Part shown: in pieces, positions 6,638-41,870 of the stretch | Numbering within the stretch: position 1 is the stretch's first letter | Layout: each line of letters opens with the position of its first letter | NCBI GenBank assembly: GCA_029938555.1 | Contig: JAOZUR010000007.1 | Location: 1,581-65,580, forward strand | Source of the DNA: Candidatus Sabulitectum sp. | GTDB lineage: Bacteria; Fermentibacterota; Fermentibacteria; Fermentibacterales; JCC-6 | Direction of reading: 5' to 3' | Length of the DNA stretch: 64,000 nt | Made by a program: the position numbers and the translations under genes | Notes under the pieces: generated by a model | The model's database searches: none | The model's input: only the letters and a program-made list of their open reading frames with translations | What the model was told of the DNA's origin: nothing

Positions 6638-8628
6638 AAAAACTACTTCATAATCACCTGCAATTTTTGCTTATGGCTGGATTCGCTGGTTGGATATTTA
6701 TTTCTTGGCGTCTTGCTGGTATGCCGGACCCAGGTTTTTCTGGTCGGTTTATTCCAGTAGCTTGGTTTTTTGCAGCTCTGTTGAATGGTTCCAAAAAATT
6801 ATCAAAATCGTTTATTCCCATGGTTATTAGTTATTCTGCCGGAGTTTGGTTGTGGATGCTTAATCCATCAGTTTGGGTTATTGTTGCTGCTATTCCAGTT
6901 GCAGGTCTTATTGTTTGGTCTTTTTCAATAGCAGATAAAAGCGGTTTCGGTATTTTTAGGGCCATACTTCCTGTATTGTTTTTATCTTTGATTACTGCTG
7001 AAGTTAATGGAGATGAAGTCAGATTTGCAGAACAAGCAGCTGTGATTTCCAGAGTATCCAACAGCCGATTTTCGGTAACTCATTTTCGTCCCGGAGATAT
7101 AAGCAGTACACAAGGGCATCATACTCCGGTTTTCCCTTTTCTTATCTCGCCCGGTCTGCACATAGGTGATACAGGTTTAAGAATAATTCCTGTAATTGTT
7201 TCTTTGCTTGCTATTTTTGCCTTGGCAAAACTTACAAATCCTAAAATAGCAGTGGCAGCTGCATTATTGTATCCTGGTTTTGCTATTTTGGGTTTGGCTA
7301 TGACCGGCTGGATGGCTGCCGGCTTGTTTACTCTGGCTGTATTATTGCCGGAAGGTAAGAAATGGTTAACAGTTCGTTTTTTGATAGCTCTTTTGCTTGT
7401 GGCTCTTAAAATTCGATATATAGGTTTGGCAGCTGGTATTTTACTGGCTGAATATGCTTGTATTCCTAAAAGTAAAAATAAATGGATTGTTCCAATTATA
7501 GGAATCTTCTCAACTGCTTTAGTTTTGGTTGTTGATAGATATCTGCTAAATGGAATGCTTTTCTGGAGCAGGTACGGCAATATTGAAGCAGTTAATTTGA
7601 TATGGACTAACACCTTTCATAGACCTATTGAAACATTAACTCATGCTGGATGGAGTTTGTTTGATCCCGAGGCAGGACTTTTCTTCAGAGCGCCATGGGT
7701 GCTTGCTTCTATTCCCGGTTTATTCTTGTATCATAAAAAATCTCCAATTCGATTCAAAAAACTATTTATTCCTGCTTTTCTTTATTGGGCTTTTTTAATA
7801 GTCTGGTCCGGTTCTTCCTGGCACGGGCTTCCAGCGCCTGTTGGAAGAATGTTTGTGCCAATGCTTCCTCTTTTTGCAAGTGGTCTTCTTATGGTCTGGA
7901 ATAAGAAAGAAACACGAATTCTTATTGTTCTATCAATAGCTGTTTCCGCCTTGGTAGTAGTATGGCCTGTCTGCAGGTATAACTTTGCAGATGGAACAGA
8001 TACTCTGCTTTCTATCTTTGGAATAACAACAGGATTTTCAATGGTTAGGAGTTATTCTTATCAACTTCTAATTGCAGGTTTTCTTGCTTTATCAACAATG
8101 CTTGTTATTGGAAAATCACAAAAGTACAGTGGAATGATGTTTGTCTTAATTTTATCAATTGTTTTCTTTTTATCACTATCGCCTAGTGGGTATGAAGCAG
8201 AAGATTTAACTCCAGATATGGTTCAAGGTGCTAGATTGTATCCATATAGTTCAGACCCTGTTGAAAGATTTTTCTGGTTTAACAGCCGCGAAAGAATGCT
8301 TGAACTGGCAGAGGCAGGTCAGTCTGTTCTTATGCCGAATGTGGAAGCAGGAGATACTCTTGTTCTTCAAATGTCAAGTAAAGAGGCAGAGTTATTGGTG
8401 GGGAATCAACTAATTCAAGTTGCTTCAGAGTTGATAGAGTTGCCTTCGGTTTATAGAGATATTGGAAGATCTGTACGGGTTTTACCAGACAGACCTGAAA
8501 ATCGTCTGATGATGGAGTATTCGATTTTGGTGGATAGTACAGATGTTAGTAATCAATCCATTCGTATCACACATAACAGTGGCTCGCCTGTTTATATTGA
8601 TAGAATAAGATGTTTGGATTCCTTATGA
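6634..8628 (+). CDS. large polytopic membrane protein, possible GT-C (ArnT/PMT_2-like) glycosyltransferase
   Basis: 664 aa with more than 12 hydrophobic segments and a ~150-aa C-terminal soluble domain. The early loop NGDEVRFAEQAAVIS...HHTPVFPFLISPGL resembles the DE-x-R/Y-A...PPL loop of ArnT/PMT_2 proteins. GTGA-coupled start. Confidence 0.45.
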   Translation: MKKLLHNHLQFLLMAGFAGWIFISWRLAGMPDPGFSGRFIPVAWFFAALLNGSKKLSKSFIPMVISYSAGVWLWMLNPSVWVIVAAIPVAGLIVWSFSIADKSGFGIFRAILPVLFLSLITAEVNGDEVRFAEQAAVISRVSNSRFSVTHFRPGDISSTQGHHTPVFPFLISPGLHIGDTGLRIIPVIVSLLAIFALAKLTNPKIAVAAALLYPGFAILGLAMTGWMAAGLFTLAVLLPEGKKWLTVRFLIALLLVALKIRYIGLAAGILLAEYACIPKSKNKWIVPIIGIFSTALVLVVDRYLLNGMLFWSRYGNIEAVNLIWTNTFHRPIETLTHAGWSLFDPEAGLFFRAPWVLASIPGLFLYHKKSPIRFKKLFIPAFLYWAFLIVWSGSSWHGLPAPVGRMFVPMLPLFASGLLMVWNKKETRILIVLSIAVSALVVVWPVCRYNFADGTDTLLSIFGITTGFSMVRSYSYQLLIAGFLALSTMLVIGKSQKYSGMMFVLILSIVFFLSLSPSGYEAEDLTPDMVQGARLYPYSSDPVERFFWFNSRERMLELAEAGQSVLMPNVEAGDTLVLQMSSKEAELLVGNQLIQVASELIELPSVYRDIGRSVRVLPDRPENRLMMEYSILVDSTDVSNQSIRITHNSGSPVYIDRIRCLDSL

Positions 8629-11074: not shown

Positions 11075-12342
11075 TGAAAAAAAAGATATTGCTTGTTGAA
11101 GATAAAAGAGGAATGCGGGTAATGCTTCAAACTGCTCTTTCAGAGGATGGTTGGAATGTTACAGCGGTTTCCGACGGAGCTTCAGCTCTTGAACAAATAC
11201 AACAAAATTCATTTAGTGCTGTTCTTACAGATGTTTGTCTTCCAGGTAGATTTAACGGAATTGATGTACTTGAAAGCGTACCATCAACCACAGCTGTTAT
11301 AGTTATGACAGCATTTGGTACTATCGACATTGCAGTTGATGCAATGAAAAAAGGTGCAGCTGATTTCATAAGTAAACCATTTAAACTTGATGATTTGTTA
11401 GAAAAGCTTTCTTCCATGACTTTCAATAATTCAGATTTTATGCTAGGGGAATCATCAGTTTATCTTGATGCTTTATCTAGGGCCAAAAGAGCAGCTCCCA
11501 GCGGAATGAATATTCTTATTTTAGGAGAAAGTGGTACGGGAAAAGAGCTGTTAGCAAGAACAATACACCAGTGTAGCGGTAGGGAACAAGGTCCATTTGT
11601 GCCGGTGAATTGTGCTGCAATTCCTGATAATCTTATGGAAAGCGAACTTTTTGGAGCAGAAAAGGGAGCATATACAGGTTCCACAGAGGCTCGTCCTGGT
11701 CGATTTACAGTGGCTAGAGGGGGAACTATTTTTCTAGATGAAATTGCAGACCTAGACATCTCCCTTCAGGGTAAATTGCTTCGGGTTATTGAATCAGGTA
11801 CATATCATTCTGTGGGAGGTACAGAAGAAATACAATCTGATGCTTTGGTTGTTTCAGCCAGCAACAGAGATCTTCGTTCCATGGTTAAGAAGAAGCTTTT
11901 TCGAGAGGATCTTTTTTATAGAATTAGTGAATTTCCTGTTGAGCTTCCACCTCTTCGCGAGAGAGGTAGTGATATTCAATTACTTGCACAGTATTATCTT
12001 GAATTATATGGTGGTGGTTCTTTTTCTGCATCTGCGTTACAGGCTCTTAATAGTTATAACTGGGCAGGAAACATAAGAGAGTTAAAAACTCTTATCAGGC
12101 GTGCGTGTGTGAATTCTTCTGATGAAGTTATCACTTGTGACATGATTGAATTTAGTCAACACAAACCACAAGGTTCTATGGTGGAGCAAGCTGCAAACGC
12201 AGCAAGAATAAAAGAAAAGGCACTGATTATTTCTGCTCTTTCAGAGACTGGTGGTAATCGTAAAAAAGCTGCAGAGATCCTTGGGGTTAGTTACAGAACT
12301 CTTCTCACAAAAATAAAAGAAATGAAGATAGTGGTGGAATGA
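11071..12342 (+). CDS. sigma-54-dependent response regulator (NtrC family: REC, AAA+, Fis-type HTH)
   Basis: REC (LLVEDKRGMR...TDVCLPG), Walker A GESGTGKELLAR, sigma-54 contact loop EKGAYTGS (a GAFTGA variant), Walker B FLDEI, and C-terminal HTH GNRKKAAEILGVSYRTLLTKIKE. Confidence 0.9.
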   Translation: MMKKKILLVEDKRGMRVMLQTALSEDGWNVTAVSDGASALEQIQQNSFSAVLTDVCLPGRFNGIDVLESVPSTTAVIVMTAFGTIDIAVDAMKKGAADFISKPFKLDDLLEKLSSMTFNNSDFMLGESSVYLDALSRAKRAAPSGMNILILGESGTGKELLARTIHQCSGREQGPFVPVNCAAIPDNLMESELFGAEKGAYTGSTEARPGRFTVARGGTIFLDEIADLDISLQGKLLRVIESGTYHSVGGTEEIQSDALVVSASNRDLRSMVKKKLFREDLFYRISEFPVELPPLRERGSDIQLLAQYYLELYGGGSFSASALQALNSYNWAGNIRELKTLIRRACVNSSDEVITCDMIEFSQHKPQGSMVEQAANAARIKEKALIISALSETGGNRKKAAEILGVSYRTLLTKIKEMKIVVE

Positions 12343-13025
12343 GTATAAAAAAAGCAATAGTTCTTCTTAGTGGAGGGTTGGATTCTACAACGATACTTGC
12401 AATTGCAGATCAACAGCAGATGCAAATTACTGCTCTTTCCTTCAGGTACGGACAAAAGCATAACCAGGAGCTTATAAGAGCCGAGGAAATAGCAAAAAAC
12501 TATAATGTAAAAGAACACATCATAATCGATTTAGACCCAGAGCCTTTTAGAGGCTCTTCACTTACAGAAGATATATCAATTCCTCAAGGGCGTAACAACA
12601 TATCAAAGCAGATACCAAATACTTATGTTCCCGCTCGAAATACAGTATTTCTTTCAATTGCACTTGGAATTGCCGAATCAAGAAAGGCAAATCACATTTT
12701 TATAGGAGTTAATTCCGTTGATTACAGCGGATACCCTGATTGTCGTCCAGAATTCATAAATGCATTTCAGAATCTTGCTAATCTGGCAACCAAAGAAGCG
12801 GTGGAAGGTTATCCACCAAGGATTGAAGCGCCTCTTTTGTATTTAACCAAAGCGGAAATCATAAAAAAAGGAATGGATCTAGGGGTAGATTATGGACAAA
12901 CACTAAGCTGCTATCAACCTGATTCCACAGGGCTTAGTTGTGGTGTTTGTGATGCTTGCTCTCTTCGACTAGAAGGTTTCCGGGCAAATGGGTTAACAGA
13001 CCCTGTATCTTATCGTTCAAAATGA
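12339..13025 (+). CDS. queC: 7-cyano-7-deazaguanine (preQ0) synthase
   Basis: PP-loop VLLSGGLDSTT, and a C-terminal Zn cluster CYQPD...SCGVCDACSLR. Confidence 0.9.
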   Translation: MSIKKAIVLLSGGLDSTTILAIADQQQMQITALSFRYGQKHNQELIRAEEIAKNYNVKEHIIIDLDPEPFRGSSLTEDISIPQGRNNISKQIPNTYVPARNTVFLSIALGIAESRKANHIFIGVNSVDYSGYPDCRPEFINAFQNLANLATKEAVEGYPPRIEAPLLYLTKAEIIKKGMDLGVDYGQTLSCYQPDSTGLSCGVCDACSLRLEGFRANGLTDPVSYRSK

Positions 13026-13624
13026 ATAATAAATACAGAGTAAAGGAAATGCAGCTTACTCTTCAAGGTGAGGGAGCCATGGCTGGAACCGCTGTTGTTC
13101 TTCTTCGATTTGAAGGATGTAATCTTAATTGTAGTTTTTGCGATACGGAATTTGCAGGTGTAGATGGACATGGGGGAGGAGTTTTTAATTCTCCTGCTGA
13201 ATTGGCAAAGGCAGTTCAAAGCATTTGGAAATCTAACCTTTCAGTTAATGTATTATGTACCGGTGGTGAACCTTTGCTCCAACTGGATAAAGCTTTGATT
13301 CATGAATTTCATTCAAGAGGTTTCAGGATTCTTTTGGAAACAAACGGTACGCAAATTGCAGGAACGGGTATTGACTGGATTTGCGTCAGCCCTAAAAGTG
13401 CAACTATTCCCGTTCAGAACCACGGAGATGAAATTAAGATAGTTTGGCCGCAAGATAATATTAATCCGAAAAATTTTGAAGAATTAAAATTTGATTTTTT
13501 CTGGATTCAACCAAAATTCGATAAAAATTACGAAAAAAACCTTTTACTTTCGATAAAGTACTGCCTGGCTAATCCCAAATGGAGATTGAGTATTCAAACC
13601 CACCGATTTATTGGAATACCATAG
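13022..13624 (+). CDS. queE: 7-carboxy-7-deazaguanine synthase (radical SAM)
   Basis: LTLQGEGAMAGTAVVLLRFEGCNLNCSFCDTEF is the QueE-type CX14CX2C-like cluster region. The ATG at 13022 overlaps the queC stop (ATGA); the ORF-track start at 12956 lies inside queC. Confidence 0.85.
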   Translation: MNNKYRVKEMQLTLQGEGAMAGTAVVLLRFEGCNLNCSFCDTEFAGVDGHGGGVFNSPAELAKAVQSIWKSNLSVNVLCTGGEPLLQLDKALIHEFHSRGFRILLETNGTQIAGTGIDWICVSPKSATIPVQNHGDEIKIVWPQDNINPKNFEELKFDFFWIQPKFDKNYEKNLLLSIKYCLANPKWRLSIQTHRFIGIP

Positions 13625-13633
13625 GAGACAATA

Positions 13634-13987
13634 ATGGAAATTTACAGAGAATTTAAGTTTGATGCAGCTCACAAGTTACCAAATCTGCCGGAAGGGCACA
13701 GATGCGGTAATCTTCATGGACATACATTTGTAGTTTACATACATATTCAAGGTAATGTGGGAGAGAAAACTGGTTGGGTAATGGATTACGGAGAAATTAA
13801 AAGTATCTGTGCTCCTGTTATTGATAAACTGGATCATCAGTATTTAAATGATGTTTCAGGGTTAGAGAATCCTACAAGTGAAGTTATAGCTCAATGGTTA
13901 TGGAACAGAATCAAACCTGTTCTTCCTGAGCTGTCTATGATTGAAATCAAGGAAACAGCTTCCACAGGGTGCAGGTTTTTAGGATGA
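13634..13987 (+). CDS. queD: 6-carboxy-5,6,7,8-tetrahydropterin synthase
   Basis: FKFDAAHKLPNLPEGHRCGNLHGHTF is the PTPS/QueD Zn-His motif. A GGAG lies 6 nt upstream of the ATG. Confidence 0.9.
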   Translation: MEIYREFKFDAAHKLPNLPEGHRCGNLHGHTFVVYIHIQGNVGEKTGWVMDYGEIKSICAPVIDKLDHQYLNDVSGLENPTSEVIAQWLWNRIKPVLPELSMIEIKETASTGCRFLG

Positions 13988-14778
13988 AAGACATACAAAG
14001 CAATCCTGATTTCAGGAATATTCCATTAAGAGAAGCTGGTATCAAAGACTTGAAGTATCCAATCACAATTCTTGATCGTGAGAATAGAGAACAAACCACA
14101 GTGGCTGATTTGTCCATGTCTGTGAATCTTCCTCATCATTTCAAAGGTACTCATATGAGTCGTTTTCTTGAAGTTCTCACAGATAGTGATTGCAGATTTA
14201 CAGGCAATACAATACCGTTGGTTCTTAAAAAACTTAAGGAATCTCTTGAGGCAGAGTCAGCAAGAATTCGAATAGAGTTTCCTTACTTTCTTACCAGAAA
14301 AGCACCTGTCACCGGAGCAGAAGCTAAAATGAGCTACCTTTGTGTTTTTACCGGAGAGTCAACTAATGTGAAAGATGACTTTATTCTTTCAGTAACCGTG
14401 CCTGTTAGTACCCTCTGTCCATGCAGCAAGGAAATCAGTGCAAGAGGGGCACATAATCAGCGTGGATATATAAAGATGGATGTACGCACGAAATTAAAAG
14501 CAGATGGCTCGTTTGAAATGTTATGGATTGAGGAACTGGTGGATATAGCCGAGATTTCAGCTTCCTCACCGGTTTATACCATCCTTAAACGGCCAGATGA
14601 GAAATTTGTAACAGAGCAATCTTATGATAACCCAGTTTTTGTTGAAGACATTGTAAGAAATGTAGCAGAAATTCTTCAGAATGATTTAAGAGTAACTCAG
14701 TTCACCGTAACAGCCGAAAATCACGAGAGCATTCATAATCATAATGCGTACGCTGTGGTTACTTGGCAGAGGCAGTAA
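13984..14778 (+). CDS. folE2: GTP cyclohydrolase I type 2 (GCYH-IB)
   Basis: KGTHMSRF...STLCPCSKEIS..GAHNQRG is characteristic of FolE2/MptA. The ATG at 13984 gives an ATGA overlap with the queD stop. Confidence 0.85.
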   Translation: MKDIQSNPDFRNIPLREAGIKDLKYPITILDRENREQTTVADLSMSVNLPHHFKGTHMSRFLEVLTDSDCRFTGNTIPLVLKKLKESLEAESARIRIEFPYFLTRKAPVTGAEAKMSYLCVFTGESTNVKDDFILSVTVPVSTLCPCSKEISARGAHNQRGYIKMDVRTKLKADGSFEMLWIEELVDIAEISASSPVYTILKRPDEKFVTEQSYDNPVFVEDIVRNVAEILQNDLRVTQFTVTAENHESIHNHNAYAVVTWQRQ

Positions 14779-14823
14779 ATATGGTTTGTTTCATCTGTAG
14801 TTTTTTACGAAAGGAGTATTATA

Positions 14824-15348
14824 TTGAATAGTATTTATATTCAGTACTACAAAAGTAAAATTGGTGAATTGATTCTTGGATCTTTTGACGACAAACTCTG
14901 TCTTCTTGATTTCAGGTATCGAAGAATGAGAGATACAGTTGATCGTAGGTTAAAAATAGGGTTGAATGCTGTTTTTGAGCAAAAAGACAATACTCTTCTT
15001 TGCACCACTAAACAACAACTTGATGAGTACTTATGCGGAGTTAGAAAGGAATTTGATATTCCTTTAAAAACAGTAGGATCTGATTTTCAGAAAAGTGTGT
15101 GGCAGGCTCTTTTGAAGGTTCCTTATGGTACCACCTCCACTTACTTGAAGTTAGCTGACGCCATTGGGAACAAAAATGCTGTTCGAGCAGTTGCTAATGC
15201 AAATGGAGCAAATTCTATAGGAATAATTATTCCATGTCACAGAATCATTGGAAGCAATGGAGATTTGGTTGGATATGGTGGGGGATTGCCAATCAAAAAA
15301 CGGCTTTTGAAATTAGAGAAACCAACCAACCAACAAGAACTTTTCTAA
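14824..15348 (+). CDS. ogt: methylated-DNA--protein-cysteine methyltransferase
   Basis: Active site IIIPCHRIIGSNG (PCHR) and the VPYGTTSTY helix-turn-helix region. TTG start. Confidence 0.85.
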   Translation: MNSIYIQYYKSKIGELILGSFDDKLCLLDFRYRRMRDTVDRRLKIGLNAVFEQKDNTLLCTTKQQLDEYLCGVRKEFDIPLKTVGSDFQKSVWQALLKVPYGTTSTYLKLADAIGNKNAVRAVANANGANSIGIIIPCHRIIGSNGDLVGYGGGLPIKKRLLKLEKPTNQQELF

Positions 15349-15743
15349 GACTTGTTGTATTCAGCCTCAACTTTAATGGAAATACCACCTCTAACACCGA
15401 AATCAGCTAAAACTCTGCACCATCTAGGTTGAATTGCTTCAAGAATATCATTTAGTATCATGTTTGTTACATGTTCGTGAAAAACGCCTTTATTTCTGTA
15501 TGAAAGATAGTATAGTTTTAAAGATTTTGATTCTACAATTTTTAAATCAGGTACATAACTGATTGTAATTTCTGCGAAATCAGGCTGACCGGTTTTAGGG
15601 CAAACGCAGGTGAATTCATCTGTAGATAGAGTTACAATGTAATCTCTTTCCGGGTTAAGATTCGGGAAAGCTTCTAATCCTTTAAATTCGTTATTGGAGC
15701 TACCCAAAAGAGATAAGCTTTCCATATTGGTTTGATTTGTCAT
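15345..15743 (-). CDS. queF: NADPH-dependent 7-cyano-7-deazaguanine reductase (unimodular type)
   Basis: EFTCVCPKTGQPDFAEITISYVP and the downstream HEH-type motif (FHEHV). The start overlaps the stop of the upstream kinase gene. Confidence 0.9.
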   Translation of the reverse strand: MTNQTNMESLSLLGSSNNEFKGLEAFPNLNPERDYIVTLSTDEFTCVCPKTGQPDFAEITISYVPDLKIVESKSLKLYYLSYRNKGVFHEHVTNMILNDILEAIQPRWCRVLADFGVRGGISIKVEAEYNKS

Positions 15744-27599: not shown

Positions 27600-27794
27600 T
27601 TGGGTAAAATTGGAACCACTGAGCTTATTTTGATTCTTGTGGTGCTTCTTTTACTGTTCGGAGCAAAAAGAATTCCTGATATTGCACGATCAGTAGGGAA
27701 ATCTTTGAATCAGTTTAAAATCGGTTTAAAAGAAATTGATATTGATGAGAAGAAATCAGAAGAGAAAAAAGAGCGGAACGAGGGTGATTCTTAA
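27600..27794 (+). CDS. tatA: twin-arginine translocase subunit TatA/E
   Basis: GKIGTTELILILVVLLLLFGAKRIPDIARSVGKSLNQFK. I place the start at the TTG at 27600, preceded by GGGGGG. The ORF-track start at 27537 lies inside the previous gene. Confidence 0.8.
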   Translation: MGKIGTTELILILVVLLLLFGAKRIPDIARSVGKSLNQFKIGLKEIDIDEKKSEEKKERNEGDS

Positions 27795-28396
27795 TGGCAA
27801 CTGTTAGCTACAGCGCAAAAGAAATCGATTGTAAAATAGTGTATGCAGGGCCTGGGTTATCTGGAAAAACTACAAATGTAAAACATATTCACGGTCAAGT
27901 TGATTCGGATTCAAGAGGGAAATTAATCTCTTTGGCCGCAGGCAATGATAGAACTTTGTTTTTTGATTTCTTGCCTCTTGATTCCGGCGAGATAAACGGT
28001 TTTAAAATCCGTCTTCACCTTTACAGTGTACCAGGCCAGGCCATGTACTCCGATAGCCGAAGATTGATACTTCAAGGTGTTGATGGTATAGTTTTCGTTG
28101 CAGATTCCCAGGAAACAAGAATGGATGCTAACATTGCCAGTTTGAGAGATCTTAAGGAAAACCTTCGTAGCCAAAGAAGGAAAGGTGTTAGCCTTGTTCT
28201 TCAATGCAATAAGAGGGATCTTCCTGATGCTATTCCTGTGGCAGAAATGGTTAAGGAACTTGGTTTATCTCGGGTTGCATGCATTGAGGCGGTTGCTTCT
28301 GATGGGAAAGGTGTTTTTGAAACTTTGCGCCGAGTGAGTCGTATGGTGATTGGACGGTTACATAAACAATTTGAAATACTGGAAGGACAAGCCTGA
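27794..28396 (+). CDS. MglA-family small Ras-like GTPase (paralog 1)
   Basis: KIVYAGPGLSGKTTN (G1), DRTLFFDFLP (intrinsic Arg region), LHLYSVPGQ (G3 with Ser/Thr in place of Asp, as in MglA), FVADSQ and CNKRDLPDA (G4). The TAATG junction with tatA is an overlap. Confidence 0.85.
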   Translation: MATVSYSAKEIDCKIVYAGPGLSGKTTNVKHIHGQVDSDSRGKLISLAAGNDRTLFFDFLPLDSGEINGFKIRLHLYSVPGQAMYSDSRRLILQGVDGIVFVADSQETRMDANIASLRDLKENLRSQRRKGVSLVLQCNKRDLPDAIPVAEMVKELGLSRVACIEAVASDGKGVFETLRRVSRMVIGRLHKQFEILEGQA

Positions 28397-29853
28397 TGTC
28401 TGATTCTTTCGTTGACTTGCTGCTTGTAAGATTAGGTAGAGAAGAAGAAAAAAAGAAAGTTATGAAACTTTTGATTACTAATTTGGATCTGTCTGTTAAA
28501 GAAGCTGAAGACGCTGTAAGTAACTCACCATCTGTGATTAAAGAAGCAGTATCAATGAACGAAGCTAGAATTATACAGAAGGATATGTACCCATATATTG
28601 ATCTTCTTCCAAGGCTCGAGGAGGAGCCTGTTAACGAGAGTTCAGACTCAATACCTCAACCTGCAGTTAATGAACCTGAGCTTTCTGAAACTGTGGTTCC
28701 GGAAGATGACATTGCCAATGAATTTGAAGAGCACGATGATGTTGATATTGATGTTGAAGTTGATAACAATATTGATGATGATGATGATGACGATCCCATT
28801 ATTATTACCTCTGCAAGTGAAGAGATAGTTTCTGCCACTAGATGTCATATATGTGGGAGAACTCCTTCAGATGATCAGCGTCTTGCTCCATGCCGCACCT
28901 GTGGAGACTTAACCTGTAGAGACTGTTTTGACAGGGTTGCACATGTATGCAATCACTGTGCTAATAAAGGTAAAACGGTAGACAAAGCTAATGAAGGAAT
29001 GGAATCTGAATCAGAAACCGGTTTGGAATTCGATACTGATGAAGTTACCCAAGATATTGTCAACAAAAAAAGTGGAGTTGTAAGAAGCATCTTGGTTGTT
29101 CTGTTTATTGTTGTTCTTGCTGGTTTGTTCTATTTTATTGATCCCATGGGTCTTTTTTCCGGTAATCAGCTTGCTGGTTTTTTCCAGTCCGAAGAAGTAT
29201 CCGCAGTGGTTGATACAACCTCTGTTGATTCTGTCTTTATTCAAGATTCTATTCTTTCAGATACTACAGCTACCCTTGAAATCACCGGTGATTCAACAGA
29301 GATAACACCGGATTCAATTTCTACTTCAGTTGACCTAGTTATTGATGTGGATCCCTATGGGGTTCTTTCGCTTTCTACTTCTGATAGTTTAATATCTGAA
29401 GAAGATGTGTTATCAATTAATTATCAAACCAGAAGACCAAGATCACTTTCCGAAGTAATTATTCCTTCAGAGGAAAGTGAGATTTTATTTGAGCAGGTCA
29501 GTGTAATTGCTTCAGCTATTCCTGTCATGGTAGACGATGGTGTATTTTTGGTTTATCAGGATACTACAAGTATACTTGTCCTTGCAATTTTGCATCCAGT
29601 TGAAATGGATACTCGAATGGAGCTAATGCGGAATGTGGCTGCTATGCTTATCCAGACTGAAATAGACCAGCTTGTAATTGTTTACAAGGAAGATCGTTTT
29701 CAGCAGGTAAATCATTTCAGTCTCGTTCAAGAGTCTTTTTCCAGTGTTCAAGGTATTTTGAATCCAAGGCAATTCCAGGGTTTTTTAAGTACCCGTGTAA
29801 ATTGCTGGGAATTAATCAGTGGCCCTGTAACCCAGTGGCTTTCTTCCGAATAG
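28396..29853 (+). CDS. hypothetical single-pass membrane protein: L7/L12-CTD-like N-terminus, poly-acidic linker, 8-Cys zinc-ribbon cluster, TM, ~235-aa extracytoplasmic domain
   Basis: The TGATG junction with the GTPase gene is an overlap. Residues 24-63 (LLITNLDLSVKEAEDAVSNSPSVIKEAVSMNEARIIQKDM) parallel the L7/L12 C-terminal TGLGLKEAKDLVE.AP..LKEGVSK.DAE.LKK.L. The cysteine spacing is C150-x2-C-x12-C-x2-C-x4-C-x2-C-x7-C-x2-C. The TM segment is SILVVLFIVVLAGLFYFI. Confidence 0.6.
   Translation: MSDSFVDLLLVRLGREEEKKKVMKLLITNLDLSVKEAEDAVSNSPSVIKEAVSMNEARIIQKDMYPYIDLLPRLEEEPVNESSDSIPQPAVNEPELSETVVPEDDIANEFEEHDDVDIDVEVDNNIDDDDDDDPIIITSASEEIVSATRCHICGRTPSDDQRLAPCRTCGDLTCRDCFDRVAHVCNHCANKGKTVDKANEGMESESETGLEFDTDEVTQDIVNKKSGVVRSILVVLFIVVLAGLFYFIDPMGLFSGNQLAGFFQSEEVSAVVDTTSVDSVFIQDSILSDTTATLEITGDSTEITPDSISTSVDLVIDVDPYGVLSLSTSDSLISEEDVLSINYQTRRPRSLSEVIIPSEESEILFEQVSVIASAIPVMVDDGVFLVYQDTTSILVLAILHPVEMDTRMELMRNVAAMLIQTEIDQLVIVYKEDRFQQVNHFSLVQESFSSVQGILNPRQFQGFLSTRVNCWELISGPVTQWLSSE
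28735..28794 (+). repeat. GAT/GAW-rich low-complexity coding tract (Asp-rich DDVDIDVEVDNNIDDDDDDD)
   Basis: Read directly from the sequence: gatgatgttgatattgatgttgaagttgataacaatattgatgatgatgatgatgacgat. Confidence 0.7.
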
Positions 29854-32079: not shown

Positions 32080-32948
32080 TTCTTGAATCATTCAGAGATG
32101 AACTGCTTTGGGGCAGAGGACTTTCTACTCTCACCGTGAAAGCTTATGTCTCACAGCTTAATGATTTTTGTTTAGTCACCGGTTCTCTTGGTTCTGATTT
32201 TAATATAACTACTTTACGAGAGTATTTAATGAAGAGAGCTTTAGGTGGTTTATCACCAAGATCCATATCGCGAATGATTAGCTGTTTTCATACATTTTCA
32301 AAATGGCTTGTGGAAACAGGAAGGTCAGAGATTGATCATTCTCAGTTACTTCAGCCACCTAAAGTACCGGTGAGTTTGCCAGGTTTTTTGGGTATCAGTG
32401 AGGTGAAAAGTGTTCTTGGTGCTTTTGACCTGTCCACAACCAAGGGGCTCCGTGACAGGGCTATTGTAGAGCTTCTTTACGGTGCAGGCCTAAGAGCGGC
32501 AGAAGCTGCATCTCTTCTGCAGGTAGATACTAACATTATTGGTAATTCTGTTAAAGTCATGGGCAAAGGACGCAGGGAACGAATTGTTCCAATACCAGTT
32601 GGTACCACTAAATATCTAGCTGAATGGATAAAAAAACGACCCGAATTTGCTTTTGATGCTGGTTCAGTTACTCTTTTTGTTAGCGTGAGAGGTCGAAAGC
32701 TTGACCCGAGAGATATAAGGCGTATTGTTTCAGCAGGCGTGGCCGGTGCTGCACGGGCGGCTGGAGCTACACCACATACATTCAGGCACAGTTTTGCCAC
32801 CCATCTTTTGAATAAAGGAGCTGACATTAGAACAGTTCAGGAACTACTTGGGCACGCAGGGATAGGAACAACACAGATATATACACACCTTTCTACAGAA
32901 AAATTGAAAGGTGTTTACATGCAGTCACACCCCAGGGGGAAAAAGTGA
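32058..32948 (+). CDS. tyrosine site-specific recombinase, XerC/XerD family
   Basis: LSTLTVKAYVSQL (SAM-like N-domain), RDRAIVELLYGAGLRAAE, and HTFRHSFATHLL.KGADIRTVQELLGH....TTQIYTH (R-H-R-H-Y catalytic set). The start is inferred to be the TTG at 32058; the ORF-track start at 31959 lies inside topA. Confidence 0.8.
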   Translation: MQKDDRLILESFRDELLWGRGLSTLTVKAYVSQLNDFCLVTGSLGSDFNITTLREYLMKRALGGLSPRSISRMISCFHTFSKWLVETGRSEIDHSQLLQPPKVPVSLPGFLGISEVKSVLGAFDLSTTKGLRDRAIVELLYGAGLRAAEAASLLQVDTNIIGNSVKVMGKGRRERIVPIPVGTTKYLAEWIKKRPEFAFDAGSVTLFVSVRGRKLDPRDIRRIVSAGVAGAARAAGATPHTFRHSFATHLLNKGADIRTVQELLGHAGIGTTQIYTHLSTEKLKGVYMQSHPRGKK

Positions 32949-35896
32949 AGATTAAAAGTGTATTTACAGCTGACAGGCTTGTGGCAATCGCTGCAGCTTT
33001 TGCTGCTTTTCTGGTTTATGTAATTACTCTTGCACCATCGGTGAGTTTCTGGGACAGTGGTGAATACATTACTTGTTCCTGGGTGGTTGGCATTCCGCAT
33101 CCGCCAGGAGTTCCTTTTTTCGTTCTTCTTGGAAGGGTAAGTACTCTCATTTTTGGTTTTATTCCATCAATAGCTGCGCGAGTTAACTTGATGTGCGCAC
33201 TTGCTGGAACTGTTACAATTGGTCTTGTTGCAAGGCTTATTCAAAGATGGAGTATAAGACTTAATTATGAGCCGTGGTTGTATAGGCCTGTATCGGTTGC
33301 TGGGGCTCTTATGGCTGCTTTCAGTTACACAGTATGGAGAAACAATAATGCCACGGAAACTTATGCCATGGCTGCACTTTTATCTCTTCTGATTTTATGG
33401 GTTTTTGATATGTGGATAGAAAAACGGCTGGAAGGAAAACCTGCAGGCAGGCAATTGCTTCTTACCGGATATCTTATGACACTTGCTATTGGTAATCACC
33501 TGAGTGCACTTATTGTAACTTTGCCTATTTTCTCAATGTATGTGCTTTATGCTTTCAGAAAAAAAGCTCATGAATGGAAATCACCTAGTTTTCTTGTGGT
33601 TCTTTTAAGTCTGATGATTCTTGCTTTCAGTATTCATCTGTATATGCCTCTTCGAGCTATTCAGAATCCTGAAATTAATGAAACAAATCCATCGGTATGG
33701 ACAGAATTTAAAGAGGCTCTTGAAAGAAAACAGTATGGTCAAGTTTCTATCTTCAGCAGAAAAGGACCATTCCAGGATCAGCTGGGGTTGTTTGCAGAAT
33801 ATCTATCCTGGCAGGTGGGAAGACCTGAAGCTTGGACAGGTTCCATGGGCACCGGCGGCGGCGTGGCGTGGGCTTTCCTCTGGATGGGTACTGCGATTCT
33901 GGCAGTGACAGGCCTTGTTGTTATAGGTATGAGGCGTAAAGATCTGCTTCTTATTATAGGGTTATCGTTTATTATGGCAAGTCTTGCGTTTGTGGTTTAT
34001 CTGAATTTTAAAACAGGTCCGGAAGGAACTGCACTTGGTGAAGTGCGAGAGCGAGATTATTTCTTTGGAGCTTCATTCATATTTTTCTCAATTTTATCAA
34101 TGATCGGATTAGGCTCTCTCTTTGCTTCTGCCAAGGGTAAATTCGCCAGGAAAGCCACATGGCTTATGCTTCTTTTTCCCATGATTCCGTTGACAATGAA
34201 CTGGCACCATTGTGACAGATCAGGTGATTACGTTGCAAGGGATTATGGAATAAACTTGCTACAATCGTGCCCTGAAAATGCAGTGATTATCACCAATGGA
34301 GATAATGACACATTCCCACTGTGGTTTGCGCAAGGTGTATTAGGCGTAAGAAGAGATGTTATTATCTCTAATCTCAGTCTTATGAATACAAAGTGGTATG
34401 TGCAGCAACTTCTTATTAAGGACCCAGAGTTGTTAAGTTATGCCGACTCTACAGTTTCCAGCATGCAACCTGTGTTTATCTGGGGACCAAACTTTTTTCA
34501 TGTGTCTATTGATGGTTTACCGGAAACCAAACAAATTGACAGGCAAATACTTGACGATACTTTCAATAACCAGTGGCCATGGGCCTATACTGAAGGTAAC
34601 ATGAGTATTCCTGTGCCTTCAATGGGAAGAGGAAGTCAAGGGTCTGTACCTATGCAGGATCTTCTTCTTATTGATATGATAAGTCGCAAAGCCATTCATG
34701 GCAGGGAAATAATGATTGCCGGTACAGTTTCCGGGGCTAATAGATTGTATGTTGAAGATTATCTTCAGATGCAGGGAATTTCTTTCCAAGTTATGGATGA
34801 ACCTGTTCGCATGGAAGTGAGCACGGAATTGGGTTGGCCTTTGGCAGAGCAATTCTTAACCACAGGTTTAACTGATCCAGGAGTTTTTAAAGATGATCAA
34901 GCGATTCAGATTGCCAGAAACTATGTAAGTGCTTATAACAGATTGGCATATCAATACATGGCCGAAGGTAATACCGAAATGGTAGAAATCTGTTTAAACC
35001 GCTCAGAGGAACTTTTTTCTGCAATGCCAGTTGAATGGCTTTCAATTATGCCCAGTTTTGTCCTTTTAAAAGCTCGATTTACCCATGGAAGTCAAGGAGC
35101 TGAAGCTGCAATTGCTTATGTTGCAGAAGCAACAACATATATGGATAGCATGGCAGTTGTTACGAATAATCAAACTGTGGCAGCAGCAGCAGCGCAATTA
35201 ACAGCTGTTGCAAGAGAGTTTGAGCAGGAAGTAGCTTTTGACGGTGTAATTGATATTATCAGTGATGGATCACCAGCCCAAGAGTGGATGAGAATAGAAA
35301 AAGATCTTTCTTTTGGCAATTATATAGCAGCAAGACGAGTTCTTCTTGAACTGCATGAACAGTGGCCTAATGAGCATGAAGCTCTTTTAAGTCTTATGGA
35401 TGCAACTGTTAACCGTTATACTATATTCAGCCCTGTTAACAGTGGATTAAGCATAATCGATTCAGCTCTTGCATCAATTTTTAACCACACTAATCAATCC
35501 AGTGCTACAATTGAGTGGAATGAAGATGTTTCAGCGGCTTCAGTTATTGTTGAAATGGTGGGGCTTGCCTCTCGCGGGGGAGTTATGTCTGCTGTTTCCC
35601 TTGGGAATACCATTGCTTCTGTTATAGAATCTGATTCAGAGTTTGAGGCACAGATTCTTCTAGATTTATGTCAAGAGTTCGTTACATACCCAGAACAGGC
35701 AGAAGAGTTATCCCTTTGGTTCCTTTTATCAACAGGAACATTTTCACCAGAGGTTAGAGCTCTTAGTCTTGCAGATAATCAATTCTCAGGTTTTTGTTAT
35801 GCAATTTTAGTTAATGATCTTGGAATAGACGAAGAGAATGCGATTTTGCTTTCTAAGAGCCGATCAAGTCTTGCAGAATTGCTGGAGGAAAAATGA
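32945..35896 (+). CDS. DUF2723 (TMEM260-like, GT-C-type) large membrane protein with ~500-aa C-terminal soluble region
   Basis: The N-terminal loop FWDSGEYITCSWVVGIPHPPGVPFFVLLGR is the hallmark DUF2723 motif. About 11 TM segments follow. The C-terminal half is helical and repeat-like. GTGA-coupled start. Confidence 0.7.
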   Translation: MKIKSVFTADRLVAIAAAFAAFLVYVITLAPSVSFWDSGEYITCSWVVGIPHPPGVPFFVLLGRVSTLIFGFIPSIAARVNLMCALAGTVTIGLVARLIQRWSIRLNYEPWLYRPVSVAGALMAAFSYTVWRNNNATETYAMAALLSLLILWVFDMWIEKRLEGKPAGRQLLLTGYLMTLAIGNHLSALIVTLPIFSMYVLYAFRKKAHEWKSPSFLVVLLSLMILAFSIHLYMPLRAIQNPEINETNPSVWTEFKEALERKQYGQVSIFSRKGPFQDQLGLFAEYLSWQVGRPEAWTGSMGTGGGVAWAFLWMGTAILAVTGLVVIGMRRKDLLLIIGLSFIMASLAFVVYLNFKTGPEGTALGEVRERDYFFGASFIFFSILSMIGLGSLFASAKGKFARKATWLMLLFPMIPLTMNWHHCDRSGDYVARDYGINLLQSCPENAVIITNGDNDTFPLWFAQGVLGVRRDVIISNLSLMNTKWYVQQLLIKDPELLSYADSTVSSMQPVFIWGPNFFHVSIDGLPETKQIDRQILDDTFNNQWPWAYTEGNMSIPVPSMGRGSQGSVPMQDLLLIDMISRKAIHGREIMIAGTVSGANRLYVEDYLQMQGISFQVMDEPVRMEVSTELGWPLAEQFLTTGLTDPGVFKDDQAIQIARNYVSAYNRLAYQYMAEGNTEMVEICLNRSEELFSAMPVEWLSIMPSFVLLKARFTHGSQGAEAAIAYVAEATTYMDSMAVVTNNQTVAAAAAQLTAVAREFEQEVAFDGVIDIISDGSPAQEWMRIEKDLSFGNYIAARRVLLELHEQWPNEHEALLSLMDATVNRYTIFSPVNSGLSIIDSALASIFNHTNQSSATIEWNEDVSAASVIVEMVGLASRGGVMSAVSLGNTIASVIESDSEFEAQILLDLCQEFVTYPEQAEELSLWFLLSTGTFSPEVRALSLADNQFSGFCYAILVNDLGIDEENAILLSKSRSSLAELLEEK

Positions 35897-37759: not shown

Positions 37760-38350
37760 ATGGGGAGAAGAATGCACAGGTCAGGTAAAGAGGTTGCCTA
37801 CAAGATTGTCTATTACGGTCCTGGCCTATCAGGAAAAACTACGAATCTTAGGGGTATCCGAGATATTATTGCACCAGAGAACAGAGGTAGGCTTGTTACT
37901 CTTTGTACTAGGTGTGAAAGAACAGTATTTTTTGATTTTCTTCCAGTGAACTTTGCAAAAATAGATGATGTTCGAGTTAAACTTCATCTGTATAGCGTTC
38001 CTGGGCAGGCATATTATGCTCTTAGCAGAAGAGTTATTCTTGATGGCATTGACGGAGTTGTTTTTGTGGCCGATAGTCAGAAAGAAAGAGCCGAGGCAAA
38101 TCTAAGCACTCTTGATGATCTTGAGCATAATTTAAAAAGTTATGGTCTAGATATGTCAATGCTTCCTATTGTTCTTCAGTTTAACAAAAGAGATCTGCCA
38201 GGGGTTATGTCAACATCAAGGATGAACGCTGATCTTAACAAGTTCGGATGGCCAACTGTTGAATCTGTGGCTATCGGCGGAACAGGTCCTGCTGAAACCT
38301 TGAAAATTATTGCTACCCAGATAGCCAAGCGCCATGTGCGCACGGGCTAA
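37760..38350 (+). CDS. MglA-family small Ras-like GTPase (paralog 2)
   Basis: KIVYYGPGLSGKTTNL, ERTVFFDFLP, LHLYSVPGQ, FVADSQ and FNKRDLPG. An alternative start is the ATG at 37772, which has GGAG upstream. Confidence 0.8.
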   Translation: MGRRMHRSGKEVAYKIVYYGPGLSGKTTNLRGIRDIIAPENRGRLVTLCTRCERTVFFDFLPVNFAKIDDVRVKLHLYSVPGQAYYALSRRVILDGIDGVVFVADSQKERAEANLSTLDDLEHNLKSYGLDMSMLPIVLQFNKRDLPGVMSTSRMNADLNKFGWPTVESVAIGGTGPAETLKIIATQIAKRHVRTG

Positions 38351-40475
38351 ATCTAGATCGTATATAAAAGAAATCGTTCTTCTGTTTTTGCTTCTAGCAG
38401 GAGGATTTCTTTTCCGTACGGTTTTTGCTCAGGGGGTAATGCCCCCGCCAGCGCGTATGCAGGGAGAAACAACACAGGCATACCGTTATACAAAAATGAT
38501 TTCAGATGGAAGATCAATTCCCCATGTAGATTCGCTTGTTAATCATCCTGTTGGTTTAAATACAGGAGAGAATTCGATATTTGAAGAATACATTGCTGGT
38601 GGTATTCACTCTGTGATCAAGGGAGACTTAAGCAATTTCCTTCTTTTATTCTGCCGTTTCTTTCCGTTGTTAATATTACCTATTCTGTATTTTTGGATGC
38701 TTAACTCTGGTTTTTCTTTACCTGAATCAGCCACCGGAGCAGGTTTGTATGCTGTTTTTCTTCCAGCTTTGCTCAGAACAAGAGGGGAAAGCTTTTACCG
38801 AGAAACTGTAGCTCTACCATTTATTATTTTATGTGTCTCCATGATTGATATGGCAGTTAGAAGTGATAAGAAAAATGGTTTAAAACTATCAATTGGTGCT
38901 GCAATTGCTTTGTTTGTATCTCTTGCATCATGGAAAGTTACAGGTTTTGTATCTTTCTTTCTGTTTGTTTGGCTTGCTTTTAAAAGACCAGGTATTCGAA
39001 TAGTTCTTCCTTTGGCTGCAAGTCAGTTACTTGCGTCTGTTGTTCTTTCACACATGCGTCATGATGTTGCTATTCTTTCTCCAGCTTCATTTATGGCAAT
39101 TGCAGCAGTTGTTGTAACTTTGTTTGCCCATAAATTGATTCCTTGGTTTGGGTTATTAGTTTCATTGGTTGCAGGATTTCTTTTTGGTTCTTCATCCAGC
39201 GGTCATGTGGTCTCGGTAATTACAGCAAAACTGAGATTTTTCTTCAGTCATCCAGAAAACCCAGCATTATTATCAGGGGATACAAGGCTTTTTTGGGTTA
39301 GTGGTTACACCAGCCCAGCTTTAGGGCAGATAATTCTGCTCTTTGGAATTGCGTTATTGATTTCCGTCTCTGGGTGGAAACCTTTCTTAAAAAAAGCTCA
39401 CGGTTCTCTTATGTTTTTTCTTGTGCCACTTACTCTTGCTGGTTATCTCTTTTTTGATAGATTGCATGTTTTTCTCGCAATAAGCCTTATTCCTCTTGTG
39501 GTGGCAGGGGCCCGGGGAAGGAAATGGGTTTTACCAATCTTATTGACTGTGTTTGGAGTTCAATCCATGTATGCTCCGGAAATTGCCATGGCTCTTTCCA
39601 GAACAGGATTAGAATATTCAAGTTCTTCTTCTTTGCTGAATGACCATGAGTTAGATGATCTTCTTTTGTGGGCTGAAGTTAACAATGGCAATACGCTTTC
39701 TTTTTGGCATATATCAGGATTGCTTTCAGCATACGCTGATATGCCTGTTGTTACCCATACATTCTTCGAGAATGCTGAAAACAGAAAAACTATCATTAAT
39801 TTTGCTGAAAGAATTTACGGTACCGAGGCTGAAATGATATCTTTTATGGAAGAATCACAGGCAGAATACCTAGTTTATCAAGCTGATTTTATTTTTGATT
39901 CAACCCACCAAGGGCTTTTATACCTTGCAGCTTTACAAGAAATACCTGATGGGTCATTGGCAATCAGGCTTCATTATTATCCAAGTTCTCTTGAAAGACT
40001 TAAATTAGTATGGCAGGGTGCATCTATCAGGGTGTTTCAACTTGATGGTATTCCGACAGATAACCCAAGATTTCCTCTGTGGGAGTCAAGATATGCTTCA
40101 TTTATTTATAATGCTGAAGCGGCATCTTCTATTATTAACATGCCGGTGGAAACGGGTATTCTTTTTGCAGACCAGGGCATTCTGACTTCTAACCATCAAA
40201 AACTTTCAGCTGCTCTTTTGCTTTTCTCTAAACATCCAGATTCTGTTCCAGTAGAAGCAGTTACTACTTTACTGCAAGAACTCTTAATGTTAAATCTTGA
40301 CGGTCAGTATTCTATTGAAGATCTTGAAGAAGATTTTGTTACCTATTTAGATTCATGGGGGCCAGACCCGCAGATTCGATTAGATCTTGTTCGTCTTTTA
40401 CGGGCAAACAATCTTAATCAAAGAGCAGATTACCACATGGAGATTATTCAAACCATGGGAAGAAGTGGAATATGA
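38334..40475 (+). CDS. large polytopic membrane protein, GT-C-like with STT3/PglB-like loop motifs (degenerate)
   Basis: 713 aa with ~12 TM segments and a ~290-aa C-terminal soluble domain. The first external loop AYRYTKMISDGRSIPHVDSLVNHPVG parallels the STT3/AglB pattern (F/Y)-x-YR...G....D....YP-x-G. After the last TM, LSFWHISGLL sits where WWDYG normally is. It overlaps the GTPase gene by 17 nt. Confidence 0.45.
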   Translation: MCARAKSRSYIKEIVLLFLLLAGGFLFRTVFAQGVMPPPARMQGETTQAYRYTKMISDGRSIPHVDSLVNHPVGLNTGENSIFEEYIAGGIHSVIKGDLSNFLLLFCRFFPLLILPILYFWMLNSGFSLPESATGAGLYAVFLPALLRTRGESFYRETVALPFIILCVSMIDMAVRSDKKNGLKLSIGAAIALFVSLASWKVTGFVSFFLFVWLAFKRPGIRIVLPLAASQLLASVVLSHMRHDVAILSPASFMAIAAVVVTLFAHKLIPWFGLLVSLVAGFLFGSSSSGHVVSVITAKLRFFFSHPENPALLSGDTRLFWVSGYTSPALGQIILLFGIALLISVSGWKPFLKKAHGSLMFFLVPLTLAGYLFFDRLHVFLAISLIPLVVAGARGRKWVLPILLTVFGVQSMYAPEIAMALSRTGLEYSSSSSLLNDHELDDLLLWAEVNNGNTLSFWHISGLLSAYADMPVVTHTFFENAENRKTIINFAERIYGTEAEMISFMEESQAEYLVYQADFIFDSTHQGLLYLAALQEIPDGSLAIRLHYYPSSLERLKLVWQGASIRVFQLDGIPTDNPRFPLWESRYASFIYNAEAASSIINMPVETGILFADQGILTSNHQKLSAALLLFSKHPDSVPVEAVTTLLQELLMLNLDGQYSIEDLEEDFVTYLDSWGPDPQIRLDLVRLLRANNLNQRADYHMEIIQTMGRSGI

Positions 40476-41279: not shown

Positions 41280-41870
41280 ATGATTCTTTTACTGTTATTT
41301 CTTTTGTCAGAACCCCAATCGGATCAATCCATGTCCATGTGGGAACTTAGGGCAGGTTTGGTGCAAGAGACCACCCCAATGGCTTTGGGGGCTTCGCTTT
41401 ATGTAATTGCAAATTCTTCAGAAACTTCTTATTTATCAGATGAAGCGATTATTCGTTTTATAGATGGTGGCAATAGGTCAATGATTGTTCCACTGACCTC
41501 TTTTTTGGTCTCTGATGGAAAAACGAAATTGGCTGAAATTTATTGGCGGTTACAAGGGTATGACCTTCCCGCCACTAGAAGTGATCTTCTTGATGCTCTT
41601 GCTTGGTTTGGTCGACATGAATTGTATACAGTCATGGCATTAAAACCAGAAATTCCCGAAGATATGATTGGTGATATGTTTTCAGAGCAATGTGCTGCTG
41701 TTTGTCATCTTGGATGGATGACCACCAGGCAAGATGGTCTGTTTCACGGTGATGAACTTGTTTCCTACGCAGATATTAGAATTCTTTCTAGCTTCTTGTA
41801 TATTGAAAACCCACAGGCAAGTTTTTTGTCAGTTTCTTCTCTTGAAAATCTGTCTTTGTTGACTCCATGA
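41280..41870 (+). CDS. hypothetical protein with hydrophobic N-terminus
   Basis: 196-aa ORF in the tightly packed operon, with an N-terminal MILLLLFLL. No family recognised. Confidence 0.4.
   Translation: MILLLLFLLSEPQSDQSMSMWELRAGLVQETTPMALGASLYVIANSSETSYLSDEAIIRFIDGGNRSMIVPLTSFLVSDGKTKLAEIYWRLQGYDLPATRSDLLDALAWFGRHELYTVMALKPEIPEDMIGDMFSEQCAAVCHLGWMTTRQDGLFHGDELVSYADIRILSSFLYIENPQASFLSVSSLENLSLLTP

Follow-up and report, generated by a model that had tools for sequence, protein, structure and literature searches.

Among bacterial Ras-like polarity switches MglA has been studied best, and yet, to our knowledge, hardly any orphan MglA, one encoded without an adjacent MglB (the Roadblock/LC7 GTPase-activating protein of MglA), has a known partner. 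In a survey of prokaryotic Ras-like GTPases, mglB adjoined mglA for 390 of 449 MglA genes, and the Group 1 orphan MglAs showed no conserved neighbours (PMC4316618). In the Agl-Glt gliding machinery of Myxococcus xanthus, the bitopic protein GltJ carries a cytoplasmic zinc finger, a 95-residue disordered linker and a GYF domain that work as a switch; MglA-GTP flips this switch, which in turn controls the recruitment of MglB (PMC11135422). Here we describe a gene, hereafter the partner gene, that lies directly downstream of an orphan mglA in a 64,000-nucleotide (nt) stretch of Candidatus Sabulitectum sp. (GCA_029938555.1, JAOZUR010000007.1, positions 1,581 to 65,580 of the forward strand; hereafter the window, meaning the whole stretch analysed). 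Its product is a predicted bitopic inner-membrane protein, and we consider the chances about even that it is an MglA-binding effector or adaptor that works in the manner of GltJ.

The two proteins share a layout: both are bitopic inner-membrane proteins with a long N-terminal part inside the cell, and both combine a zinc finger, a disordered linker, a second small cytoplasmic domain, one transmembrane helix and a periplasmic part. They have no sequence homology, and their parts are arranged differently. GltJ has an N-terminal single-zinc ZnR finger and a membrane-proximal GYF domain, whereas in the partner a domain with the fold of the bL12 C-terminal domain (CTD) is N-terminal and an eight-cysteine (8-Cys) finger is membrane-proximal; neither GYF nor zinc-ribbon models of Pfam matched any of 30 members of the partner family. 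In GltJ, a conserved motif of the linker binds MglA, while the linker of the partner is hypervariable and acidic. The periplasmic domain of GltJ is TonB-C-like according to the literature, and that of the partner lacks recognised relatives. Moreover, GltJ is tied to MglA functionally and its gene is not adjacent to mglA, whereas the partner is tied by the adjacency of its gene and its MglA binding is putative. The partner falls outside bL12 proper, MglB, bona fide FYVE fingers and GltJ, and resembles GltJ in layout and presumably in working.

Several matches identified the upstream gene. In phmmer searches of the PDB, its product matched MglA of Thermus thermophilus (3T12) over residues 1-189 (E 3e-63) and MglA of M. 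xanthus over the full length (E 2e-62), and Pfam Arf matched it at 1.3e-10. The translation contains the MglA motifs: the P-loop GPGLSGKT, the intrinsic Arg in xDRTLFFDF, the switch II motif (S/T)VPGQ, and NKRD. By its sequence, the gene is a true MglA. It is also an orphan by the 'within four genes' criterion of PMC4316618. A tblastn search of the window with an M. xanthus MglB sequence gave no match at E≤10, Pfam scans of about 26 further open reading frames (ORFs) of the window found no Roadblock domain, neither the partner nor 30 relatives had a Robl_LC7 Pfam match, and no Roadblock structure was present among the best 50 Foldseek matches of either partner model. The partner holds the operon position beside mglA that MglB holds elsewhere, but it differs from MglB in having neither the Roadblock fold nor its sequence, in being membrane-anchored and in being three times larger.

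We examined the partner family using 30 diverse aligned members, 117 full-length relatives and 59 loci with upstream sequence. A total of 134 relatives were found in 5.8 billion clustered proteins, and all those named by organism came from Ca. Fermentibacteria (Sabulitectum, Aegiribacteria, Fermentibacteraceae). A full-length profile searched against 1.84 billion cluster representatives returned about 15 full-length representatives plus fragments, and no relative outside the phylum. With one genome per species, GTDB yielded 61 partner loci; the organism-named ones were Fermentibacteria/Hyd24-12, and the others were titled 'uncultured bacterium'. To judge from these searches, the family occurs only in Ca. 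Fermentibacteria (Hyd24-12), a small, uncultured phylum.

Within this family, all 59 informative loci had mglA directly upstream of the partner gene and on its strand. In 61 of 63 loci, the mglA stop codon lay 11-26 nt from the codon of an invariant partner residue, D7; the exact TGATG overlap was present in 32 loci, as it is in the window, where the TGA of mglA and the ATG of the partner share one base (28394-28398). A Shine-Dalgarno-like stretch, GGAAGGA, lies about 8 nt 5' of the partner ATG. The short gap and the overlap suggest that MglA and the partner are co-translated and made in matched amounts. The two proteins evolve at different rates: across loci, MglA was 73-95% identical (59 loci) and the partner 31-58%. 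Inside the partner, mean pairwise identity was 65% for the L12-like domain and 69% for the zinc module; the periplasmic domain reached 34% and the linkers 17-27%. The slow evolution of the cytoplasmic modules, together with the high identity of MglA, is consistent with these modules binding a very conserved protein. Overall, the linkage of mglA and the partner gene is suggestive of a joint function and falls short of proof. The features of the locus are listed in Table 1.

Table 1 Coordinates of mglA, the partner gene and the parts of its product (positions in the window; aa, amino acids; pLDDT, predicted local distance difference test)
Feature	Position (nt)	Strand	Basis
mglA, MglA-family small GTPase, 200 aa	27794..28396	+	phmmer against PDB, Pfam, sequence reading
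Whole partner gene, 485 aa plus stop	28396..29853	+	ORF list
Cytoplasmic domain with bL12 CTD fold, aa 1-73	28396..28614	+	AlphaFold, Foldseek, Pfam, hhalign
Acidic disordered linker, aa 74-135	28615..28800	+	composition, pLDDT 33-49
ITSASEE helix followed by 8-Cys module, aa 136-192	28801..28971	+	alignment, hhalign, Pfam
Single transmembrane helix, aa 227-249	29074..29142	+	Kyte-Doolittle 2.67 over 19 aa
Periplasmic low-complexity D-S/T-rich linker, aa 250-320	29143..29355	+	composition, triplet positions
Conserved periplasmic globular domain, aa ~321-485	29356..29850	+	AlphaFold, Foldseek

A preliminary description of this DNA, made from its letters alone, had likened the N terminus of the partner to the CTD of ribosomal protein L7/L12, and independent searches confirmed the relationship. 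Pfam Ribosomal_L12 (PF00542) matched aa 16-63 with an E-value of 1.5e-5 and 25.7 bits, against a gathering cut-off of 25.9, and matched 18 of the 30 diverse family members individually at E<0.1. TIGR00855 matched the same stretch weakly (22 bits against a cut-off of 84). When aa 1-75 were compared with all PDB sequences by phmmer, only bL12 chains fell below E 0.02, and an hhalign comparison of a 16-sequence family alignment with the Escherichia coli CTD gave P 1.2e-5 over 46 columns at 35% identity. AlphaFold, run with the 30-sequence alignment, predicted aa 1-72 with a pLDDT of about 94 and the order beta-alpha-alpha-beta-alpha-beta (E5-10, H16-30, H34-42, E46-53, H54-64, E68-72). The top Foldseek matches in the PDB were the E. 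coli L7/L12 CTD structures 1ctf and 1rqs (template modelling score (TM) 0.72-0.78, root-mean-square deviation (rmsd) 1.9-2.5 Å, 26-28% identity), with 1ctf at TM 0.78 and rmsd 1.9 Å, followed by bL12 from other species. A ClpS-like identity was rejected, as ClpS shares the fold but ranks lower, at 10-14% identity. The signature LxxKEAxDxVxxxPxxIKEgVs is kept, as are A83 and P91 of L12. The L12 resemblance of aa 1-73 is not a compositional accident.

The domain has nevertheless moved away from ribosomal L12. The family profile matched bL12 more weakly (E 0.058) than the window sequence alone (E 0.0024), indicating that the partner family is a diverged offshoot. The bL12 N-terminal dimerisation and L10-binding domain and the hinge are absent from the partner and the 30 aligned members; in all 30, the L12-like domain starts at residue 1-5, and in the partner it is fused to a membrane protein. 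The L12 positions that contact translation factors are reportedly K65, V66, I69, K70, R73, L80, E82 and K84, a list said to go back to work by Kothe in 2004, Diaconu in 2005 and Helgstrand in 2007. These positions are implicated in binding EF-Tu, EF-G, IF2 and RF3. We tabulated their equivalents in 117 family sequences, using the register in which family position p equals L12 residue p+46. Only two of the eight positions have conserved equivalents: K65 (K/R in 115 of 117) and E82 (E/D in 105 of 117). The equivalents of I69, K70 and L80 are variable, and those of V66, R73 and K84 are K/R/Q/E, I/V/M and E/R, respectively. Thus the hydrophobic patch V66/I69 and R73 are lost from the family along with most of the factor-binding residues of helices 4 and 5, and the EF-Tu- and EF-G-contacting helix, whose conservation the preliminary description had proposed as a check, is not conserved. 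A different surface is invariant in the family, made up of D7, R12, the E17-E18-K19 loop, R58, Q61, Y65-P66, D69 and P72-R73. We read the L12-like domain as a reused protein-binding fold and not as a module that works as ribosomal L12 does.

Two side observations concern this fold. P0151 (268 aa) and P0153 (1056 aa) are free-standing, non-ribosomal proteins composed of three and seven tandem L12-CTD domains (Pfam E-values 3e-58 and 6e-123; one locus is L068), and their existence indicates that the L12-CTD fold has been reused outside the ribosome. Additionally, in the 121-aa database protein P0135 an EGF-like Cys-rich N terminus is followed by a piece with near identity to aa 29-69 of the L12-like domain; a chimeric or misassembled contig is the probable source of this protein.

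The remainder of the cytoplasmic part consists of the acidic linker and the zinc module. The linker contains 44% D+E and no K or R, and varies in both length and sequence (17% pairwise identity, many indels). The module has the pattern CxxC-x12-CxxC-x4-CxxC-x7-CxxC (CHxCG-x11-CxxC-x4-CxxC-x7-CxxC, nt 28843-28959), formed by cysteines 150, 153, 166, 169, 174, 177, 185 and 188, which are eight of the nine in the partner. These eight and H151 were invariant in the 30 aligned sequences, and the pattern matched 117 of 117 full-length relatives.

No Pfam model matched the module at threshold; the best match to FYVE (PF01363) had E 0.023, far below the gathering score. Across the 30 members the Pfam matches were weak and all to cross-brace families, namely FYVE in 7, Baculo_IE-1 RING in 5, Prok-RING_2 in 2 and B-box in 2. 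Searching the PDB with a module profile returned ASC-1, the ZZ domain of PRT1, the cellulose-synthase RING, the EEA1 FYVE domain and the TIF1-beta B-box at E 0.007-0.06, and hhalign against an EEA1 FYVE sequence gave 87% probability over 40 columns. The module shares with FYVE, RING, ZZ and B-box fingers its eight presumed zinc ligands, arranged as four CxxC pairs, and its centre, C-R-x-C-G-x3-C-x2-C, is in register with that of FYVE and identical to it in spacing. FYVE-type fingers occur in Rab effectors such as rabphilin-3A and EEA1. The partner module differs from FYVE in its 7-residue spacer before the last pair, which is much shorter, and in lacking the motifs that bind phosphatidylinositol 3-phosphate (WxxD, (R/K)(R/K)HHCR, RVC): RLAPCR replaces RRHHCR, and there is no WxxD. 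It is also all-Cys and not C3HC4. A cross-brace-like finger predicted to bind two zinc ions is a reasonable reading of this pattern, with both the binding and the connectivity being predictions.

The 8-Cys module, in the form CHxCG...CxxC...TCxxC[FY][DN]...CxxC, was also found in unrelated proteins (P0139-P0167), whose other parts include N-terminal double zinc ribbons, TPR repeats, beta-helix regions or Fib_succ_major domains. In these proteins a conserved acidic helix, NEDETKK, precedes the module in place of the ITSASEE of the partner. Its occurrence in unrelated multi-domain proteins indicates that the module is mobile, and it is one without a Pfam model.

The transmembrane helix is flanked by a strong charge bias: in the 15-aa flanks, the family mean of K/R is 3.1 on the N-terminal side and 0.27 on the C-terminal side. 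This bias, and the Cys-zinc domain N-terminal of the helix, predict an N-in/C-out orientation. The helix ends in a conserved juxtamembrane motif, F-Y-F-x-D-P-x-x-L-F, in which D249 and P250 are invariant. The form [FY]-x-x-D-P-x-x-L-F (aa 240-256 of the partner, nt 29113-29163) also occurs in the unrelated bitopic proteins P0143, P0156, P0160 and P0168, which have an S/T/D-rich linker after the helix; P0156 and P0160 start with an N-terminal zinc ribbon. The preliminary description had placed the reading frame, the cysteine cluster and the helix correctly, and its acidic linker, eight-cysteine pattern and single membrane crossing are all borne out. It had regarded everything beyond the helix as one Ser/Thr/Asp/Val-rich domain of about 235 aa. 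This region in fact has two parts, a low-complexity linker of about 70 aa and, after it, a conserved globular domain of about 165 aa.

The periplasmic linker of the partner contains six D-[ST]-[AILVMT] triplets, at aa 273, 278, 284, 289, 299 and 306. Over 117 relatives, the mean was 4.8 triplets per 90 aa; shuffles that preserve composition gave 1.0, and the cytoplasmic part (240 aa) 0.8. In Bacteroidota the same triplet serves as the sequon for O-glycosylation; it has so far been considered unique to that phylum, and the oligosaccharyltransferase that acts on it is still to be found (PMC8550257, PMC12871550). The enrichment hints that motif-directed O-glycosylation of the Bacteroidota type may extend to Fermentibacteria, another phylum of the FCB group.

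The globular domain, modelled in a separate AlphaFold run, was predicted with high confidence (pLDDT 94.3, predicted template modelling score 0.90) and the order alpha-beta-beta-alpha-beta-beta-alpha-alpha. It had no Pfam or NCBIfam match, a profile search of the PDB returned nothing meaningful, and the best Foldseek match in the PDB reached TM 0.32, with none at E<0.001. A Roadblock, PAS or other known fold was rejected on the basis of the low Foldseek scores (TM ≤0.32) and the empty profile search. An MglB-like identity was likewise rejected, as hhalign gave 0.2% probability against an M. xanthus MglB sequence. Polar residues that are invariant or nearly so (H400-P401, R407, Y430, E432 and W481) point to a pocket for binding or catalysis.

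Several observations weigh against a specific partnership with MglA. The gene order of the whole region was identical in five contexts spanning the partner family, and amounts to a conserved synteny block of about 20 genes across the phylum. A PEP-utilising enzyme, an NTP-transferase, two GT4 genes, a heptaprenyl-diphosphate-synthase-I-like (HepT-I-like) gene, DUF4321 and tatA precede mglA, and the partner gene is followed by topA, xerC (XerC/D), a TMEM260-like gene, hslVU, a second mglA paralog and a Dpy19-like gene. Because the order of the whole neighbourhood is kept, adjacency to mglA is weak evidence. The co-occurrence with mglA-like genes that the preliminary description had looked to is therefore real in every informative locus, and weakened as an argument. 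The stop/start overlap is not specific to mglA and the partner gene either, since tatA overlaps mglA in the same way, the tatA stop and the mglA start sharing one base (TAATG, 27792-27796); this chain of one-base overlaps from tatA through mglA to the partner gene (window 27537-28398) is also present in loci L001, L002 and L005. Since the partner family occurs in a single phylum, the association lacks an independent replicate. In addition, only two of the eight factor-contact positions of L12 are kept, and no GTPase was found beside the 8-Cys module in the one other context examined (P0142, locus L006, with DZR and Band_7 neighbours).

The frozen gene order fits another explanation, in which the partner has no functional tie to MglA. 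It would be a sensor or scaffold that spans the envelope, of the common type made up of a cytoplasmic zinc finger, a transmembrane helix, an S/T-rich linker and an extracytoplasmic domain; it would serve envelope biogenesis or glycosylation, and only the gene order would place it beside mglA. The synteny of about 20 genes held in all contexts examined, and glycosyltransferases and GT-C-like proteins are among the neighbours. The roughly fivefold enrichment of the Bacteroidota O-glycosylation sequon in the linker points the same way, as do the bitopic proteins that share the helix, the [FY]xxDPxxLF motif and the S/T/D-rich linker with the partner, some of them also with an N-terminal zinc ribbon. 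However, the overlap with mglA persists across lineages whose partners are only 31-58% identical, and the cytoplasmic modules are far more constrained than the periplasmic domain, which indicates a conserved cytoplasmic ligand. We regard this explanation as somewhat unlikely.

A further possibility is that the L12-like domain is a GTPase-activating protein (GAP)-like element for MglA that replaces MglB, stimulating hydrolysis as ribosomal L7/L12 does for EF-Tu and EF-G. In its favour, the fold and the sequence signal of the domain are those of the bL12 CTD, and the mglA is an orphan, with no Roadblock among about 26 window ORFs or in the tblastn search, although that search for MglB covered the window only. 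The loss of six of the eight contact positions and the weaker match of the family profile to L12 speak against it, and L12 stimulation acts within the GTPase centre of the ribosome and not through an isolated CTD. PMC12179292, citing Kothe et al. 2004, states that helices 4 and 5 of the L12 CTD touch helix D of the EF-Tu G domain. This contact means that the fold is able to bind a G domain, and it counts in favour of MglA binding by the partner as well as of a GAP-like element; taken together, we find such an element distinctly unlikely. It is very improbable that the domain keeps the L12 ligands, whether the stalk base or translational GTPases (EF-Tu, EF-G, IF2), and tethers or sequesters them at the membrane, in the service of membrane-proximal translation or as a decoy: the nearest relatives of the domain are bL12 CTDs and not ClpS, and the tandem L12-CTD proteins P0151 and P0153 exist, but the factor-binding patch is not conserved, the domain starts at residue 1 without an L10-binding domain or hinge, and the neighbourhood has no translation-related genes.

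We therefore retain the partner as a putative membrane-anchored partner of MglA. In such an arrangement, one or both of the slow-evolving cytoplasmic modules, or the ITSASEE helix between them, would bind MglA in a nucleotide-dependent manner, and the flexible acidic linker would let the L12-like domain and the zinc finger work as a switch. The transmembrane helix could pass the state of the switch to the periplasmic domain, or pass a periplasmic or envelope cue back. We consider it less likely than not that the L12-like domain is itself the contact with MglA. The more specific proposal, that a membrane protein captured the L7/L12 CTD, the element that universally recruits translational GTPases, as a dedicated docking or regulatory module for an MglA with no adjacent Roadblock GAP, we consider unlikely. 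A literature search on MglA in combination with FYVE, L12 or zinc finger yielded nothing that links them, and none of the papers returned mentioned MglA.

The wider neighbourhood is flavoured by glycosylation. Glycosyltransferases surround the partner locus, and a sugar nucleotidyltransferase, the two GT4 genes and the TMEM260-like protein (window 23728-26787 and 32945-35896) are kept across the phylum; the last is a 983-aa membrane protein resembling protein O-mannosyltransferases (GT-C). A second MglA-family GTPase (37760-38350, +, 196 aa) is 47% identical to the first, and the gene whose start overlaps its end (38334-40475, +) encodes a polytopic membrane protein of 713 aa that had no Pfam match. 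The family of this protein was found in Fermentibacteria only, and one relative is annotated as PF10034 Dpy19 (GT-C); by NCBI locus tags, it lies seven genes from the partner gene in four of five metagenome-assembled genomes and nine genes away in the fifth. Thus both MglA paralogs are each followed by a membrane protein. A scan for promoters and terminators gave counts at chance level, with no terminator between the partner gene and topA. Elsewhere in the window, two ORFs had no Pfam family at E≤0.05 (6634-8628, +, 664 aa; 41280-41870, +, 196 aa), and a queuosine precursor cluster (12339-15743) encodes QueC, a radical-SAM QueE-like protein, a PTPS/QueD-like protein and, on the minus strand, QueF, with an O6-methylguanine methyltransferase gene inside it.

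The partner family offers a concrete, cloneable candidate partner for an orphan MglA, with a small cytoplasmic part (aa 1-200). Its 8-Cys module represents a mobile prokaryotic cross-brace finger without a family model, and its periplasmic domain has a confidently predicted fold without a match in the PDB. If the L12-like domain binds MglA, the L12 CTD fold would be a general G-domain-binding module reused outside the ribosome, and the partner would become the first regulator of a small GTPase with an L12 fold outside the ribosome. Published Hyd24-12 genomes belong to diderm rods that carry genes for MreB and type IV pili and lack flagella (PMC5030696), surroundings in which MglA is usually found and with which a role of MglA in polarity or pili fits. 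A membrane-anchored partner would tie the control of polarity or type IV pili by MglA to the envelope; on the proposal of a captured L12 CTD, it would also connect the MglA switch directly, across the membrane, to a new periplasmic domain, possibly an O-glycosylated one.

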